A stretch of 64,000 nucleotides of DNA. Source: Spirochaetia bacterium (lineage in GTDB: Bacteria; Spirochaetota; Spirochaetia; UBA9216). The stretch covers positions 416,001 through 480,000 of the forward strand of contig OZ223270.1 of NCBI GenBank assembly GCA_965140585.1, given 5' to 3'. Shown piece after piece: positions 23,564 through 52,392 of this stretch. The stretch's first letter is position 1. Each line of letters begins with the position of its first letter. The notes under the pieces are model-generated. The model saw nothing but the letters and a program-made list of their open reading frames with translations, was not told the origin of the DNA and made no database searches. The position numbers and the translations under genes are program-made.

Positions 23564-26431
23564 TCAGGATCTTGAGATCTGTAATCCTTTATCAGAAAGA
23601 TCCATATCTACAAACCGTGCCCGTTTATTTGGGGGATTTGCCGTCAAAATAGTCTTTATTTTTACCGCAGCATCAGGATCCTTGGCCACGATATACAGAA
23701 ATCCGCCGCCGCCGGCTCCAGGAAGCTTATAACCTAAAGATAGATCATCAATAAGGTCGATAATTCCCTGAATGGCTTTATTATTTGTATCTTTATCTAT
23801 TTCCTTATTCAGGTTCCAGGATCTTGCTATTTTTTTTCCATAAATATAAAAATCGCCTTTTTGAATTATCTCATAAGTACCTAAAGCATGCTGTTTCATT
23901 TCTTTTAGAATTCTGTAAGTTTTATTATCATTCAGAAACATGCCTTCGACTATTTCAGTGAGTATATTCTTGGCCACTCTTGTGATCCCTGTATAATATA
24001 ACAGCATACAGTTCTTAAATTCAGGTTTTGTAAACAAAAAATCAGGCAGCCAGCGTATATCAGGAGTCTGGCTCCAGCCTCTTTCTGTATCAAGGAGTTT
24101 TACTCCCGGAACAACTCCGCCGTACTGATCCTGCCATCCGCCACCTGTTGTCAGTAGCTGCTCAAGGCCAAGCGTACGGTTACAGATTTCAACAGAATCC
24201 CAGCCCAGACCGCAGAAATCTGATAATGCCCCAAGAATCGTAGAGGCAAGGATTGAACTGGTTCCCATACCCGAGCCCTTCGGTATTGCCGCAAGAAAGG
24301 AGATTTCCAGACCTGAACCGAAATCATCAATCTGATTTTTTAAGGTTTTATACTCTCTTTCAGAGAACTCCGGAAGAAACCCACAAAGAGCGAGCGCCGC
24401 TTTAGGAATTGAAAATGGAGAACCTACCGTATTATACTGCCTGATTTCATCAAAATTACTGATTATTTCACGTGCGCCAAGATCAATTGAACGAAGGATA
24501 ATCTCTTTCTGCTCTGAAGGTCTTATAAAAGCCTGCAGGGGAGGCTGCCCGTTCAGTTCAAGTGAGATATTTACTACACTACCGCCGTTTAAAATACAGT
24601 AAGGAGAAGTATCGGTCCAACCTCCGGCTAGGTCAATTCTCACAGGGCTTCTGCCCCAGACTATCTGATCTTCATACACATTAAGTACAGGATTCTGTTT
24701 AACTGATATGATTGATTTAAGGATAGCATTCTGCAGAGTACTGAAAGCTTTCTGATTATATTCAGAGCCAGCGGAATCATTTTTTGAAATCATTGACTGA
24801 AACATCATTTCCTGCATCAGAATTTCAGGCACTTCAGATTTTACAGGAGACAGACCATCTATATTATTTGAATTTTCAAGAATATACTTTGAAGTGTTTC
24901 TCAAATCAATCTGAAAAAAAACACTCTTATCAAAGTTCTTTCTGACAGCAGCAATATTTAAAATCATATATTCATTACGCTGTTTATTGATTTTTTCTAT
25001 ATCAGCTTTATTTAGGATATCCGCTGAGGATAATTTTTCGGCTTTATTCCACTTGTTTAAACATTCAGTATCCGGTGTTCCATATAGAAACCAGTCAATA
25101 AACCTATTATCAATATCTTTTAATGAAAAAATTGGAAATATTTTAGTATCATAAATATCCGAATTGGGATTGCCTTCGAATGAATCTAAATCAATTTCTC
25201 TAACCTTGCACCAATGAATAAAAGAATCGCTTAAGAATTTTGTTGATTCTGAATAAATAGACCCTTTAAATAAATCATCAATAAAATACGCCCTAAGACA
25301 ATACCTGTCTTCTTTAATAGGAATCAGGTCAAAGCAAAATCCTTGTTCAAGTTTAATTCCAAAATTATTTTCAGGCAATCCGGTTATAATATTATTCTTA
25401 GTTAGAACAATTTTTTCATTTATAAAACTGTTCTCTATCCATATATTCTGATTTTCCGAATTTAGCCCGGTTTTAATAATACTGTTCTGTGTAAATATCG
25501 AGGGATGAGGCTTGATATTACGGCTCCAGATTTCCTGCTGATTATTTGTAATATTCTGGAGTTCAAGAGATGATTTAATTATTTCTTTATTAGTTCCAAA
25601 ATGAAAAAAGCGACCGTCTTTTATCGTAAGTACAGCTGTCGTCAGTTTATTTATTTCCGGATCTTTAATCTTAGGATTGTGCCCCAAGGACAACCCTAAG
25701 GTCCCGTATAAATCATAAAATTCCGGGATATCATTTTTAAATTTCTCACTATCCAGATCGAATCCAGATTTATCCATCAATACCTGTATTGCATTATCAC
25801 TTAAAATCCAGATACCTGTATCGATATAAAAAAGATTATCAATGATTAAATTTTTCAGATTTTCATGATCCGGCTTTTGAAGCATATACTCCAGTTTATC
25901 AGGCGAATCTCTTTTACAGACAAAAACTCCGTGATTCACAGCAATGGAAGGATCGATATTCATCCCTACACAGACTATATCCGCATCCGGAATTTTATCA
26001 AAATACTGCTCAGACCAGATTAGTGCATCTCCGCTGGCTATTATGGTATTAGAAGTTGCAGAACTAACAGAAATCAGATTATTAAGCAGTGGATACTGAA
26101 GGTTTATTAAAGTCTGATTAAACCGCTGAGCACGTTCCCACCTGAATACTGGACAGGGCAGAAAACTTTTTCCCATTGCTGCGTACGCAGGTAGTCTTCT
26201 GCTTTGTCCACCGCCGTGAACGATTATTTTCTTTTCACAAGAAAGATATTCACTGAAATTCGAGTCCTTATAGGAGGATAGCCAATCCTGATATATTATC
26301 CATGAGGTTCCGCCGCCCGACCCTATTTTCCTTTCTACAGGATCGGAACAGGCAAAATGCTTATATTCTTCATTTACGAGATGTTTGGAGTATTTTGCCG
26401 CCTTCTCAGGAAGCGAGAGAAGAAGTTTCAT
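23564..26431 (-). CDS. fkp: Bifunctional fucokinase / GDP-fucose pyrophosphorylase
   Basis: [23 protein letters not shown] (pyrophosphorylase); [44 protein letters not shown] (GHMP kinase). Confidence 0.92.
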
Positions 26432-48334: not shown

Positions 48335-48841
48335 TTAAACAAAAACATCCTGCAGAAAAGTCACACCCTGCTTCTTCTCAGCATTATCTGGTATATAACT
48401 TTCCGCATATAGCCTGAATGTTTTTTCATTTATATCATGATCATTCCGGATTAATTTCAACCCGGATTTTATACATGCATACTCTACAATAAAATCAATA
48501 TCACTTGCTCCGACCAGAACTATACTTTCATACCCGGTTGCCTTTATACCACCTATAAGTGTCTCAATCTTATCCCGGTAGTCAGCAACGTTCTTAAGTG
48601 TCCGCTTGAAATACTTATAGCTGCGTCTGGTAATCTCTTCAACACCGGAGGGTGTAACAACATATCGGATATTCCTGTTATTAACCTTCTTGACCATCAG
48701 CCAGCCCTTCTGAACAAGACGTTTTAGGATAGCGTTAGTCATCCCGAGTGACAGCTCTGATGTTCTGGCAAGCTCACGCTGGCTTAGTGGAGTTGAGGTG
48801 TTATGAATACTGTTTAAAATTTCTATTTCTTTTTCGTTCAA
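48335..48841 (-). CDS. MarR-type winged-helix regulator (EPS-associated), first gene of the locus
   Basis: SQRELA...LSLGMTNAILKRLVQKG...YVVTPSG; TTG start. Confidence 0.85.
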   Translation of the reverse strand: MNEKEIEILNSIHNTSTPLSQRELARTSELSLGMTNAILKRLVQKGWLMVKKVNNRNIRYVVTPSGVEEITRRSYKYFKRTLKNVADYRDKIETLIGGIKATGYESIVLVGASDIDFIVEYACIKSGLKLIRNDHDINEKTFRLYAESYIPDNAEKKQGVTFLQDVFV

Positions 48842-48852
48842 GGTATTATTCT

Positions 48853-49000
48853 AAACCTAAATACTTCAGCATTTAGGTTTTACCATAAGTATAAAGAAGT
48901 AATTTTAAAAAAATTACTTCAAACTAAAAATGACTACTAATCGAGTAGTCATTTTTAGTCAGGCACAATGAGTCCTTCCATTTTTGATTATAAAATGGAA
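48853..49000. repeat. Four tandem inverted repeats in the 5' leader
   Basis: Perfect arms 48853-62/48871-80 (10 bp), 48896-906/48910-20 (11 bp), 48923-38/48944-59 (16 bp), 48976-84/48992-49000 (9 bp). Confidence 0.85.
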
Positions 49001-49085
49001 AATATATATGGACCCAATTCTGTGCATTCGCCGCCGAAACAGACTGATATGAAATGAGAACTGGTATGTTTCTGTCATCGGTTAG

Positions 49086-49102
49086 TGTTCGATGTATGAA
49101 CA
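49086..49102. promoter_or_regulatory. Palindromic operator candidate 1, TGTTC-N7-GAACA
   Basis: tgttcgatgtatgaaca, directly downstream of the -10 on the minus strand. Confidence 0.6.
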
Positions 49103-49130
49103 ATTATACCGCAATACAGGTCGATTTCAA
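49103..49130 (-). promoter_or_regulatory. Sigma70-type promoter TTGAAA-N16-TATAAT for the polysaccharide locus
   Basis: Minus strand -35 at 49130-49125 and -10 at 49108-49103. Confidence 0.6.
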
Positions 49131-49179
49131 TAGAATTCGGATTAATATTCGGCTGAATTTACACATATCAATAAGAAAT

Positions 49180-49196
49180 TGTTCGAATGCTGAACA
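49180..49196. promoter_or_regulatory. Palindromic operator candidate 2, TGTTC-N7-GAACA
   Basis: tgttcgaatgctgaaca, 94 bp from copy 1. Confidence 0.55.
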
Positions 49197-49210
49197 TAAA
49201 TTTAGGAGTT

Positions 49211-49509
49211 TTATTCAGAATAAAAGATTTGTCCAATTCGATCGATATGATCAATTAGATCTTTATTATCAATATGCTCCATTACTGAAATATCTATCTT
49301 ATAAGGAAGCATCAAGTTCTCCAGCTCTTCATCAATTTGAAAGAGAATATCAGTAGAAAGTCCATTTCCAATTAAAGTAAGATCTATATCTGAGACGGTA
49401 TGAAACGTACCCTTGGATCTGGAGCCATAGATTAAAACTTTTTTTACTTGCGAGAATTATTAAAAAAACTCTGGATTTGAAGAATAGTATCTTCTTTTAA
49501 GCCAAACAT
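49211..49509 (-). pseudogene. Frameshifted MNT nucleotidyltransferase (HI0073-like)
   Basis: MFGLKEDTILQIQSFFN, one missing base near 49457-49459, then FSQVKKVLIYGSRSKGTFHTVSDIDLTL...LMLPYKIDI...LIDHIDRIGQIFYSE*. Confidence 0.85.
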
Positions 49510-49516
49510 TTTTAGA

Positions 49517-49940
49517 TTATTTTTCCTGCTCTGCTAATAAGCGCATCTTCTTCAACAACTTTTCAAATTCATCATAAAAATTCTGAACCACAACTTCAAT
49601 AATGTCTTCAGCGTTTTTTTTCATTATATGTATGCAAACTTTGATTCCTGCTTTGAATCATCTTCATCCAGGACTCACCATCCTCGATAAGACCATAGCT
49701 GAAGGCCTCTCTTACCGCATCTTTAGAACCAAAAATCTGTTTATTACCTCGATAATTAAAAAAATCTTTTATTGTATTCCATGCCAGTTCGTGAGTAAAT
49801 TCAAAAGACTGAATAAGACCCTGTTTTTCAAGATCACTTAATTCTCTTATTTGAGATAATTTTACCGCATTTTCGAGCTGTTTAAGAGCTTTAATATAAC
49901 TGTCCAGACTCTGAATCCAGCGGATATCTTTATTATCCAT
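49517..49940 (-). pseudogene. HI0074-type HEPN / nucleotidyltransferase substrate-binding protein, frameshifted at a T8 run
   Basis: MDNKDIRW...QGLIQSFEFTHELAW...RNQSLHTYNE; deleting one base of T8 (49614-49621) restores KNAEDIIEVVVQNFYDEFEKLLKKMRLLAEQEK*. Confidence 0.85.
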
Positions 49941-49947
49941 TGATTTT

Positions 49948-50188
49948 AATATTATAAAACAAACCTTTTCCATTCAAGCTGACAACCCTGAAAATTCAGC
50001 AGATACCCCACTTTGCAGCCGGCGATGTGCAAATAATTGATTAACGCTGATTCGCGAACTTGCCTTGTCCTTGAAAATAAGAAAACGGATAGTAAAATGA
50101 AAAATCTGCAGGAGGAGTATACTAACTATTTCCCTAATCTCTGCCTGCCATTACCCTATACAAATCAGTGTTTTCAGTGGCAAATACC
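49948..50188. repeat. Copy 1 of GxxExxY 3' end + leader repeat (internally deleted)
   Basis: 49948-50045 matches 50971-51068 (7 mismatches in 98 bp); 50043-50188 matches ~51316-51463. Confidence 0.9.
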
Positions 50189-50240
50189 ATTCTGACAATA
50201 CTTCACAAAAGAATCTGTTATTATATAAATTCCGTTTTGA

Positions 50241-50648
50241 TTATCCTTTTACATCCTTCAAAGCAATTTTGAGATTTTTACAGGTTCTTATGAATATATC
50301 TTCTGAAAAAATAAGCATTGATTGAATCTCAATTTTTTCCGGAAGAAATTTATCGGAAATCGGGTATGCTTCAGATAGATGATAATCTGTTGCAATACCT
50401 AATTTTCTGACCTCTTCTTCAGAAAAATTCAGTTCACTTTCAAAATCATTATAAATTTCCAATAAATCATGTGTCTTTAAAACTTTTTTATTTTTATATG
50501 CGTAGTAGGTTTTTAAGGTTATTTCAATCGCGTAATGTATCTCTATAGCGATTATATCTGTAAAATGATCTGCATTCAGTAAAAGTTTTGCCGAACTAAG
50601 GTGATGCCAGGCCTTTATCAGCCATTCTTTAGCCGCTGTTTCGTTCAT
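50241..50648 (-). CDS. HEPN domain protein
   Basis: EWLIKAWHHLSSA, HYAIEITLK, KTHDLLEI, AYP; start at the ATG 50648. Confidence 0.85.
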   Translation of the reverse strand: MNETAAKEWLIKAWHHLSSAKLLLNADHFTDIIAIEIHYAIEITLKTYYAYKNKKVLKTHDLLEIYNDFESELNFSEEEVRKLGIATDYHLSEAYPISDKFLPEKIEIQSMLIFSEDIFIRTCKNLKIALKDVKG

Positions 50649-50964
50649 AAAGAATCTTTCCATTCTGAAGAATGTCTATCTTATAAAAATAATCTTTACG
50701 ATTTAAAATTTTTACCGGGTCATCTGATAAAATATCAAACCCTATTTCATATTTTTTTATCAGTTTTCTAAGATTTAATCTGGCATCGACTCTGTAAGTT
50801 CTGGCTTTTTCGGCTGACAGATTTCCTTTTAGAAGCATAAGATCAATATCACTGTCATCATTCGGAGAGCCATTTGCATAACTGCCGAAAAGTATTATCT
50901 TTTCAGGATCCAAAGATTTGAGACTTTCTATGATTTCAGGCTTAATTTTTTCAATATCAACCAT
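50629..50964 (-). CDS. MNT nucleotidyltransferase
   Basis: PEKIILFGSYANGSPNDDSDIDL...GKILYE; start at MVDIEK. Confidence 0.88.
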   Translation of the reverse strand: MVDIEKIKPEIIESLKSLDPEKIILFGSYANGSPNDDSDIDLMLLKGNLSAEKARTYRVDARLNLRKLIKKYEIGFDILSDDPVKILNRKDYFYKIDILQNGKILYERNSG

Positions 50965-50974
50965 AATCTGAATA

Positions 50975-51242
50975 TTATAAAACAAACCTTTTCCATTCAA
51001 GCTGACAGCCCTGAAAATTGAGCAGATAACCCACTTTACAGCCAGCGATATGCAGATAATTGATTAACTGTGCTGAATGCGCCTCTGAGAACTGTTTAAC
51101 CGACTTTAGTTCAAGAATAACCTTGTTTTCATTAACAAGGTCCGCAAAATACTCACCCACACGGTTACCCTTGTATTCAACATTATAGGGCACATTGTCC
51201 CCAACCGATAACCTTATAACTTAAATCTTTGTACAGAACCAT
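50975..51242 (-). pseudogene. GxxExxY protein (PD-(D/E)XK-like), internally deleted
   Basis: GGAGG RBS + MVLYKDLSYKVIG, then jumps to PYNVEYKGNRVGEYFADLVNENKVILELKSV...AQLINYL...GYLLNF; the GxxExxY motif segment is missing. Confidence 0.82.
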
Positions 51243-51247
51243 ATCTG

Positions 51248-51388
51248 CCTCCTGCATTTTTATACAGAAGACACAGATCCGCTTTTCTGATTCTCAAGGA
51301 TGAGCGTAAATCAGCAACGCTGATTCGCGAACTTGCCTTGTCCTTGAAAATAAGAAAACTGATAGTAAAATGAAAAATCTGCAGGAGG
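51248..51388 (-). promoter_or_regulatory. Long imperfect hairpin covering the GxxExxY ribosome-binding site
   Basis: Arms 51248-56/51380-88, 51283-300/51341-58 (16/18), 51309-15/51319-25, loop AAC. Confidence 0.65.
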
Positions 51389-51496
51389 AATATACTAACT
51401 ATTGCTCTAATAGCTGCCAGCCATTACCCTATATATACCAGTGTTTTCAGTGGCCAAATAACCGTAAACTCTGAGAGCTGCTACAATAGACTATAT

Positions 51497-51790
51497 TTAC
51501 TTCAGCAGAATTCCGGAGTCTTCGATTTCTGATTTTAATAGCGAGTTTGTATTTTTGTTATATTGAACAATATCAAAGGGGTATTCTATTCCGCGTCTTT
51601 CGATATCAGCCAAAAATATAATCTTTTTTTATTAAAGATTATTTTCCTGTCGTTATTTTTAACAGCAAGATCTATATCTCCATCTTTCTTTTTATCATCT
51701 GTTCTGCTGCCGAATAAATAAACCGGATCAACACCGAAGTTTTTTTGCTGATATTAGAATTTCAGATTTTAAAGTTTCAGTTAATCTCAT
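51497..51790 (-). pseudogene. MNT nucleotidyltransferase with two homopolymer frameshifts
   Basis: MRLTETLKSEILISAK / FGVDPVYLFGSRTDDKKKDGDIDLAVK... / IIFLADIERRGIEYPFDIVQY...IEDSGILLK*; shifts at T7 51740-51746 and T7 51624-51630. Confidence 0.8.
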
Positions 51791-51852
51791 AAGAAAAAGC
51801 CCTTTTGGATTTAGTATAAAGTTATTAATTCTATCGATCAAATCCTATTTAA

Positions 51853-52392
51853 CTAAAACACAACCATCCCGATCACAGCCCCCGTCAGGATATATACCGG
51901 GGCCGGCAGCGGTTTGATTCTGTATGCGGCAAACAGGACAGCGAAAAGTATTAACGCAGGGATATTGATGCTGAAAGCCGGGGTGTCATTTAACAGGCTT
52001 TTAATGATCACATACCATGATGCAGAAGCAATAAGCCCAATGGCTGCCGGGCGGATACCCCACAGCACATTTTTAACGATTCTTTTTGAAGCATAATTCT
52101 TCATAAATGCAGCAATAAGAATGATAATTACTAGAGACGGAAGAACTATACCTGTAGTTGCAGCAAGAGACCCTTGAGCGGATGCAAGTTTGAAGCCGGT
52201 GTATGTTGCCATATTGATCCCTATCGGGCCCGGTGTCGACTGGCTTACGGCTATCATATCAATAAACTCATTGCCTCTAAGTAGCCCGCCGTCAACAACA
52301 GCAGTTTTTAGCAGAGGAAGGCTGGCCAGACCGCCGCCTATGGTAAAAAAGCCGATACGGATGAACATCAGAAACAGGTGAAGTATACTCAT
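51853..52392 (-). CDS. Chromate transporter (short-chain CHR), subunit 2
   Basis: IGFFTIGGG, SQSTPGPIGIN.ATY.G. Confidence 0.9.
   Translation of the reverse strand: MSILHLFLMFIRIGFFTIGGGLASLPLLKTAVVDGGLLRGNEFIDMIAVSQSTPGPIGINMATYTGFKLASAQGSLAATTGIVLPSLVIIILIAAFMKNYASKRIVKNVLWGIRPAAIGLIASASWYVIIKSLLNDTPAFSINIPALILFAVLFAAYRIKPLPAPVYILTGAVIGMVVF

Follow-up and report, generated by a model that had tools for sequence, protein, structure and literature searches.

Silent-only differences between two GxxExxY gene remnants in a variable toxin–antitoxin array of a Spirochaetia bacterium

Among the type I toxin–antitoxin systems, the loci symE/symR, ralR/ralA and aapA/isoA combine nuclease toxins with leaders that sequester the Shine–Dalgarno (SD) sequence. 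Genes of the GxxExxY family (TIGR04256; PF13366, PDDEXK_3) recur several times within a genome, frequently next to genes of defence and toxin–antitoxin systems. A 2012 survey of the PD-(D/E)XK proteins lists this family, in the portion available to us, with unknown function (PMC3424549), and the available part of another report carries GxxExxY only as an annotation label (PMC8934634); in such parts of the literature on GxxExxY, PDDEXK_3, PF13366 or TIGR04256 as were accessible, nothing was found on either its function or its leader. Here, we examine a 64,000-nucleotide (nt) stretch of the genome of a Spirochaetia bacterium (contig OZ223270.1, positions 416,001 to 480,000; hereafter the window, with coordinates counted from its first letter), in which a variable spot between the genes of a MarR-type EPS regulator (48335-48841) and of a chromate transporter (ChrA, 51853-52392) is occupied by an array of two tandem modules. 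Each module is built from a structured leader of ~165 nt and a GxxExxY gene, followed by a different nucleotidyltransferase/HEPN pair (cargo A and cargo B). The GxxExxY genes of both modules, copy A and copy B, are pseudogene remnants which, unlike the family at large, are truncated and without the name-giving motif. The features of the array lie on the minus strand unless another strand is given.

When 49948-50045 (copy A) and 50971-51068 (copy B) are reverse-complemented and realigned, they match without gaps (98 vs 98 nt) and differ by 7 substitutions. The codon pairs affected are TTG/CTG, CAC/CAT, GCC/GCT, TGC/TGT, GGG/GGT, CTG/CTC and GGT/GGC; all seven are synonymous, six of them at the third codon position and the remaining one at the first position of a leucine codon, and the TAA-ending frame of both remnants reads LINYLHIAGCKVGYLLNFQGCQLEWKRFVL*. 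The realignment, with its 0 non-synonymous changes, thus bears out the original prediction that every difference between the two is silent. The other two frames of the 98-nt repeat contain stops, and their translations differ between the copies. Random single-base changes in this sequence would be silent in 20-33% of cases, and the probability of seven silent changes out of seven is 1.5e-5 to 3.9e-4 under an assumed transition bias of 1 to 8. By the Nei-Gojobori method, the comparison of A with B yields 7 synonymous differences over 18.5 sites and 0 non-synonymous differences over 71.5 sites, that is, a synonymous distance (dS) of 0.53 and a non-synonymous distance (dN) of 0. The gene-end repeat, which we call D2, extends a little beyond the segments first proposed (D2A, 49943-50045; D2B, the corresponding 3' end of copy B, 50966-51068), and the two copies are identical across its final 37 nt. 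A second repeat, D1, adjoins it; a repeat search placed D1 at 50034-50184 and 51307-51457, and its true register is 50043-50184 (D1A) and 51316-51457 (D1B).

The sole other genome of the genus examined (G002, hereafter the sister genome) has a single unit between the same flanking genes, and in that unit the GxxExxY gene (121 amino acids, aa), an HI0074-type gene (140 aa) and a nucleotidyltransferase gene (99 aa) are all intact. Its GxxExxY protein is a full-length family member (138 bits), whose last 30 codons encode the identical peptide; in DNA they depart from A at 5 bases and from B at 9, every one of these changes being synonymous. Over these 30 codons, the three sequences are related by ~11 substitution events, all silent (P = 2.5e-8 to 4.4e-6). 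A codon alignment of B with this intact homologue over 72 codons gave 19 synonymous and 5 non-synonymous differences (dS 0.61, dN 0.03), and hence a dN/dS of ~0.05. The search for an intact copy elsewhere that would be identical to one of the remnants produced nothing close: the four intact GxxExxY paralogues in the remainder of the genome are only 67-73% identical to them in DNA, so that recent copying from another locus accounts for neither remnant, and D1 has no further copy.

The deletions by which the two copies were disabled differ. Copy B has an internal deletion of 98 nt (268 nt vs 366 nt in the sister genome) at ~51200-51212, flanked by TTATYGGTTG direct repeats, which removes the GxxExxY helix and shifts the frame. 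What is left of its C-terminal frame, 72 codons from a GTG (50975..51193), covers TIGR04256 positions 46-116 with 80.6 bits (cut-off 35) and PF13366 positions 48-117 with 77.4 bits (cut-off 22), and thereby places copy B in the GxxExxY family. Copy A is without everything from mid-leader to codon ~92, so that the 3' part of the leader and ~92 codons are gone, and D1A is fused straight to D2A via a 3-nt AAC overlap (microhomology). The remnant consists of the last 30 codons, the stop and 5 nt (D2A); at TIGR04256 positions 79-116 it scores 25.3 bits, which is under the 35-bit cut-off, and its family membership rests on its 93% DNA identity to B. A full-length protein of ~116-125 aa with a G-x-x-E-x-x-Y helix is encoded by neither copy, only positions 46-116 being in frame in B and 79-116 in A, and the GPGLLEQCY segment of the sister protein is deleted in both. 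Copy B retains the blocks FADLV and ILELK, which would be the PD-(D/E)XK catalytic blocks (D ... ExK) of the superfamily; copy A retains neither.

Public sequencing runs were searched as contigs only. Those of run X1 are 100% identical to the window (they are probably its source data) and span both deletion junctions; those of X3 and X4 are 90-95% identical. Run X4, which derives from another organism, shows only one unit: a joint in its sequence passes over 1023 nt, and where B has its deletion there are 88 nt more. In the metagenome run X3, a contig of 1379 nt has a complete leader and then a full-length gene after cargo B, and so an array of two units in which the downstream copy is unbroken does occur elsewhere.

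We consider it probable that both copies diverged under purifying selection as working genes and were then separately disabled, in an ordinary process of gene decay in a variable toxin–antitoxin spot. The two stretches would be the 3' ends of tandem copies of one module composed of a leader and a GxxExxY (PD-(D/E)XK, PF13366) gene; these copies would have reached a synonymous distance of ~0.5 before either of them ceased to encode a working protein, only silent differences remaining because selection had removed every amino-acid change; and each would afterwards have been disabled by its own deletion, that of B between direct repeats and that of A from mid-leader to codon ~92. The differences are exclusively silent, the sister genome is in an intact single-copy state and the two deletions are not the same; from these observations we infer the order of the events, as well as the gain of a second unit here or its loss in the sister. 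The second unit may have been imported into this lineage, or a unit may have been lost in the sister genome by recombination between copies. The intact sister gene, the ~11 silent events and the different deletions in A and B uphold the proposal that divergence preceded breakage. Of the phrase "two functional alleles", with which that proposal was originally made, the functional divergence stands; the copies themselves are better read as tandem copies heading different toxin–antitoxin pairs.

Several points weigh against this account. The numbers are small, and A's own branch on the three-sequence tree amounts to ~1.5 substitutions, which is too little to date the break in A or to reveal any later neutrality or present selection. 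A contig of 252 nt from run X3 runs colinear through the A-type fusion, gap-free and with 16 differences; the deletion in A may thus be older than "recent", or the X3 metagenome may hold several strains. There is also a mosaic pattern in the similarities: over D2 and the opening ~80 nt of D1, A is like the sister genome; over the closing ~60 nt of D1 it equals B (with 1 difference over the last ~70 nt), the sister sequence being unalignable there; and a stretch of ~78 nt about the start codon is the same in the sister genome and B. Such a pattern implies recombination or gene conversion among the copies and blurs which of them is ancestral. Lastly, the background identity between the window's genome and the sister genome is 85-93%, and B, with 88-89% identity to the sister sequence, cannot be called foreign on distance alone; a foreign origin of copy B was therefore rejected on that measure.

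A different explanation for the silent-only pattern, likewise raised in the original prediction, is that the remnant peptides are still translated and selected, for example through coupling to the cargo gene that starts 10-11 nt past the stop. Both cargo starts are without an obvious SD sequence and each lies at that distance from the GxxExxY stop, so that coupling is plausible in the intact state; the homology between B and the sister genome runs through the spacer up to the cargo ATG, copy B keeps its open 72-codon frame, and the 14 partial or stop-bearing family matches considered below include more C-terminal-only than N-terminal-only fragments (by raw counts). The possible starts speak against it. 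In copy A, the frame has neither ATG nor GTG and offers one in-frame TTG without a ribosome-binding site. The original start of copy B (51183..51242), which retains its AGGAGG ribosome-binding site, now reads MVLYKDLSYKVIGWGQCAL* and stops after only 19 codons at TAATG, whose ATG opens a third frame and not that of GxxExxY; the C-terminal frame of B can be reached only from the GTG, which is out of frame with this real start. Moreover, cargo A itself shows frame changes, and selection before the breaks fully explains the silent-only pattern, the private branch of A being too short for a test. The coupling proposal thus found no support, and we regard it as unlikely.

We give even less credence to an integron-like or other site-specific cassette array, in which the repeats would be recombination sites and not gene remnants. 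Such an array is brought to mind by the units with different toxin–antitoxin cargo separated by a repeat with an imperfect palindrome (GTCAAGG...CCTTGAC), and by the two loci at which the sister genomes differ in cargo from 10-12 nt past the GxxExxY stop. The repeat is, however, made up of the leader and the coding 3' end of the gene itself, and the same leader precedes single, dispersed GxxExxY genes; the frequent G-U pairs indicate that the palindrome folds as a sense-strand RNA; and a GxxExxY gene is absent from all 80 metagenome loci that have relatives of the cargo-B nucleotidyltransferase (control with the hidden Markov model, 30/30). The 7 tyrosine-recombinase (PF00589) matches in the genome include 0 on the window's contig, and since the repeat belongs to the gene that follows it, the integron reading was rejected. 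Least likely of all is the local duplication of an already dead gene, against which the original prediction had argued, with the silent-only pattern due to chance or gene conversion. The larger deletion of A does span the site of the 98-nt deletion of B, so that descent of A from a dead copy of the B type is possible in principle, and the two show a single difference over the last ~70 nt of D1 and none over the last 37 nt of D2. Against this, seven silent changes in seven have a probability of at most 4e-4, the unrelated cargo genes of the two units rule out a plain tandem duplication, the gene is intact in the sister genome and in run X4 with a full-length copy downstream of cargo B in X3, and A is closer to the sister genome (5 differences) than to B (7).

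In minus-strand order, the array begins after ChrA with a decayed third nucleotidyltransferase gene (51500..51841), which is decayed in the sister genome too, followed by the complete leader of B (51237..51408) and copy B. Cargo B consists of an open gene for an MntA-like minimal nucleotidyltransferase of 111 aa (50629..50964; PF18765, PF01909), whose ATG lies 10 nt past the GxxExxY-B stop, and an overlapping open gene for a HEPN-domain protein of 140 aa (50241..50663; PF05168, 50.5 bits). Against NF047752 the nucleotidyltransferase scores 37.4 bits, under the 60-bit cut-off of the MntA equivalog and so outside MntA/HepT (type VII), and inspection by eye of the HEPN protein revealed no Rx4-6H motif; to judge from these domains, cargo B falls only within the broader class of nucleotidyltransferase plus HEPN pairs. 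No close relative of its nucleotidyltransferase was found in 11 genomes of the order, the best match having 64% identity and a different arrangement (G010); in the 80 metagenome loci kept, the best identity was 65%, no GxxExxY gene lay nearby in any and no donor was identified. The pairing of GxxExxY with MntA is not general.

Downstream of the remains of leader A and copy A, cargo A comprises an HI0074-type (HEPN-like) subunit gene (49520..49940) and a minimal nucleotidyltransferase gene (49217..49509), the latter recognized by tblastn with the intact 99-aa sister protein. The former scores 83 bits with TIGR01987 (cut-off 55.8), which identifies cargo A as an HI0073/HI0074 pair, and the orthologues in the sister genome score 148.8 bits (PF08780) and 57 bits (PF18765). 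Both genes of the window show a frame change: in the HI0074-type gene at about codon 108, in a homopolymer run (~49617), where tblastn with the sister protein splits into two frames, and in the nucleotidyltransferase gene at about codon 20, again in a homopolymer run (~49440-49470). Since one base is repeated 7-8 times at each of these places, the changes may be due to sequencing or assembly errors rather than to mutations. The MarR-type EPS regulator gene closes the region. In another genus, the MarR-type EPS regulator gene (L034, G010:C1:812000-828000) is once more flanked by a GxxExxY remnant, together with a Uma2-family nuclease gene, a DUF433/DUF5615 pair and an MntA/HEPN pair that shares 64% identity with cargo B; the surroundings of this regulator may have been a toxin–antitoxin hotspot for a long time.

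The repeat D1 is the 5' part of the GxxExxY leader, and D1A corresponds to its 5' two-thirds, with the anti-SD CCTCCTGCA and the 5' strand of a long helix, P1. When the upstream regions (~165 nt) of 15 GxxExxY genes of the family were aligned, RNAalifold predicted 28 pairs, 18 of them with compensatory changes, in a fold where a 21-base-pair (bp) helix and a variable hairpin are enclosed by the pairing of the anti-SD (CCUCCU) to the SD (AGGAGG). The same arrangement, with anti-SD:SD pairing around P1 and the variable hairpin, is seen in leader B, whose minimum free energy is -49.8 kcal/mol; 0 of 200 shuffled sequences fold as well (z = -3.4). In the window's own genome, a covariance model finds 6 sense-strand matches, which lie upstream of the four intact genes and of copy B (144.1 bits) and include a partial match on A (49925-50135, 52.2 bits), plus one weak echo on the reverse strand; the leader precedes every GxxExxY gene of this genome. 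Across the class, the model matches 15 of 141 sampled genomes, belonging to several families; it returned 29 loci, 25 of them with a GxxExxY frame that starts at or just after the match (18 full-length) and 4 without, as judged by eye. In an alignment of 37 matches (36 distinct), fitted to the covariance model and therefore biased in favour of the structure, 88.8% of cells pair vs 41-52% with slid partners, double changes occur at 24 of the 28 pairs and covariation scores 0.48 vs ~0.1, which amounts to strong support. The frequent U-G pairs imply that it is the sense strand which folds.

An Rfam scan of 48800-52000 with E up to 1 returned three sub-threshold matches only, the best being FourU at 51236-51293 (23 bits, E = 0.23; gathering threshold 60 bits), and by this one search the leader appears undescribed. 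The central part of its helix cannot be aligned between the sister genome (L030, 9300-9400) and copy B (window 51290-51345), although each version is self-complementary; next to ~78 identical nt, this points to recombination among leader modules. The 5' edge of the module, and of D1, is marked in most paralogues by a TTGGCCAC(GGAT) box (51440-51457 and 50167-50184, minus strand; alignment columns ~34-46), which may be part of a promoter, an operator or the end of an antisense RNA. A sense promoter of the leader was not located, and the box stands at no fixed distance from any -10-like hexamer. Pairing of the box (ACGGAU) with the 5' strand of P1 (AUCCGU) was considered and dropped, the apparent compensatory change of copy B being absent from copy A and the sister genome. 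A small protein encoded by the plus strand of D1 (MKNLQEEY...) was likewise rejected, in view of the many amino-acid changes between the copies and the unrelated peptides in homologous leaders.

The strand opposite the leader carries a promoter-like sequence, TTGAC(n)-15/16-TA(n)AAT, contributed jointly by the 5' arm of the helix and by the unpaired block with the highest conservation. Over the 37 rows of the alignment, in ~5 of which the best-scoring pick lies elsewhere, the -10 element has T in 33, A in 36, a variable base (A15/C12/T5/G5), A in 35, A in 32 and T in 36, and the spacer is 16 nt long in most rows (27), the others having 15 nt (7 rows) or 17 nt (3 rows). In the window, a site of the form TTGAAA-16-TAAAAT lies antisense to each leader (plus strand, 50071..50098 for A and 51344..51371 for B). 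These features have the signature of a predicted sigma-70 promoter reading antisense across the anti-SD, and an antisense RNA may accordingly be expected from the leader. It is conceivable, as a tentative proposal that we think more likely wrong than right, that the GxxExxY genes are self-regulated modules resembling type I toxin–antitoxin systems, in which the leader would lock the ribosome-binding site of the nuclease gene and a cis-antisense RNA would act on the anti-SD, and that the module, from the TTGGCCAC box to ~10 nt past the stop, would serve as a homology anchor for swapped or stacked toxin–antitoxin and defence cassettes. If this were true, copy A would be an orphaned antisense-RNA gene fused to the tail of its gene, and the frequent breakage of GxxExxY genes would reflect their cost to the cell.

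The breakage is indeed common: 11 genomes of the family contain 42 GxxExxY matches, 28 of them full-length and 14 partial or stop-bearing. Internal deletions that remove the same N-terminal segment with the GxxExxY helix were observed in L058 (G133), where the deletion is in frame, in L053 (G003:C101) and in copy B of the window; they may reflect a recurrent deletion hotspot or selection against the active protein. The first downstream neighbour was tallied for 25 full-length genes (3 of the 25 taken from an earlier Pfam scan). It is a toxin–antitoxin gene in 5 (CcdB, PemK, HigB, HI0074 and Gp49-like), a restriction, CRISPR or related gene in 6 (HsdR-like, Cas3, HsdR C-terminus, NUDIX then PLD-helicase, WYL regulator and HsdM), and another gene or one without a Pfam match in 14. 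Next to a patatin-like gene lies a second locus of differing cargo, with CcdAB in the window's genome (L009, G000:C1) and HigBA in the sister genome (L027, G002:C3); the homology between them ends 12 nt past the GxxExxY stop. A 20-kb defence island (L091, G010:C1:9000-28999) contains three full-length GxxExxY genes, one of them directly upstream of hsdM, and a fourth match (~24789-24959) that is a fragment; their neighbours are a split type I restriction system, QueC/DpdA-like genes and PIN/DUF4411 and DUF433/DUF5615 pairs.

If two pseudogene fragments differ by silent changes alone, both copies were still alive during their divergence, and the array offers a clean, small example of this general rule. 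It is at the same time a variable toxin–antitoxin site in which a single small nuclease gene recurs and gives the site its structure, and one of two loci where the cargo of the sister genomes differs from 10-12 nt past the stop of that gene. The conserved leader with its predicted antisense promoter is a more interesting by-product than the gene decay itself; it provides a testable lead on the control of PF13366 genes in this class, and possibly on their frequent breakage, and the leader may merit description as an RNA motif.

Compared with the known nucleotidyltransferase/HEPN systems, cargo B resembles the MntA-HepT (type VII) and HI0073-HI0074 pairs in its combination of a Pol-beta-type nucleotidyltransferase with a HEPN protein encoded by overlapping genes; cargo A resembles HI0073/HI0074 in its HI0074-type subunit (with RNQSxH, an Rx4H motif) and nucleotidyltransferase, but has the reverse gene order. 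The leader is akin to FourU and other RNA thermometers, cis-regulators that sequester the SD sequence, in that its ribosome-binding site is base-paired in the predicted fold; it differs from them in that the main pairing is long-range (~140 nt) and encloses the 21-bp helix, and its FourU score is far below threshold. Like symE/symR, ralR/ralA and aapA/isoA, the GxxExxY modules bring together a gene of a nuclease family, a long folded 5' leader that is predicted to pair with its own ribosome-binding site and a conserved predicted promoter antisense across that leader; unlike them, they encode a soluble-looking protein of ~120 aa, and the likeness is put forward as a resemblance to the type I systems and not as membership among them.

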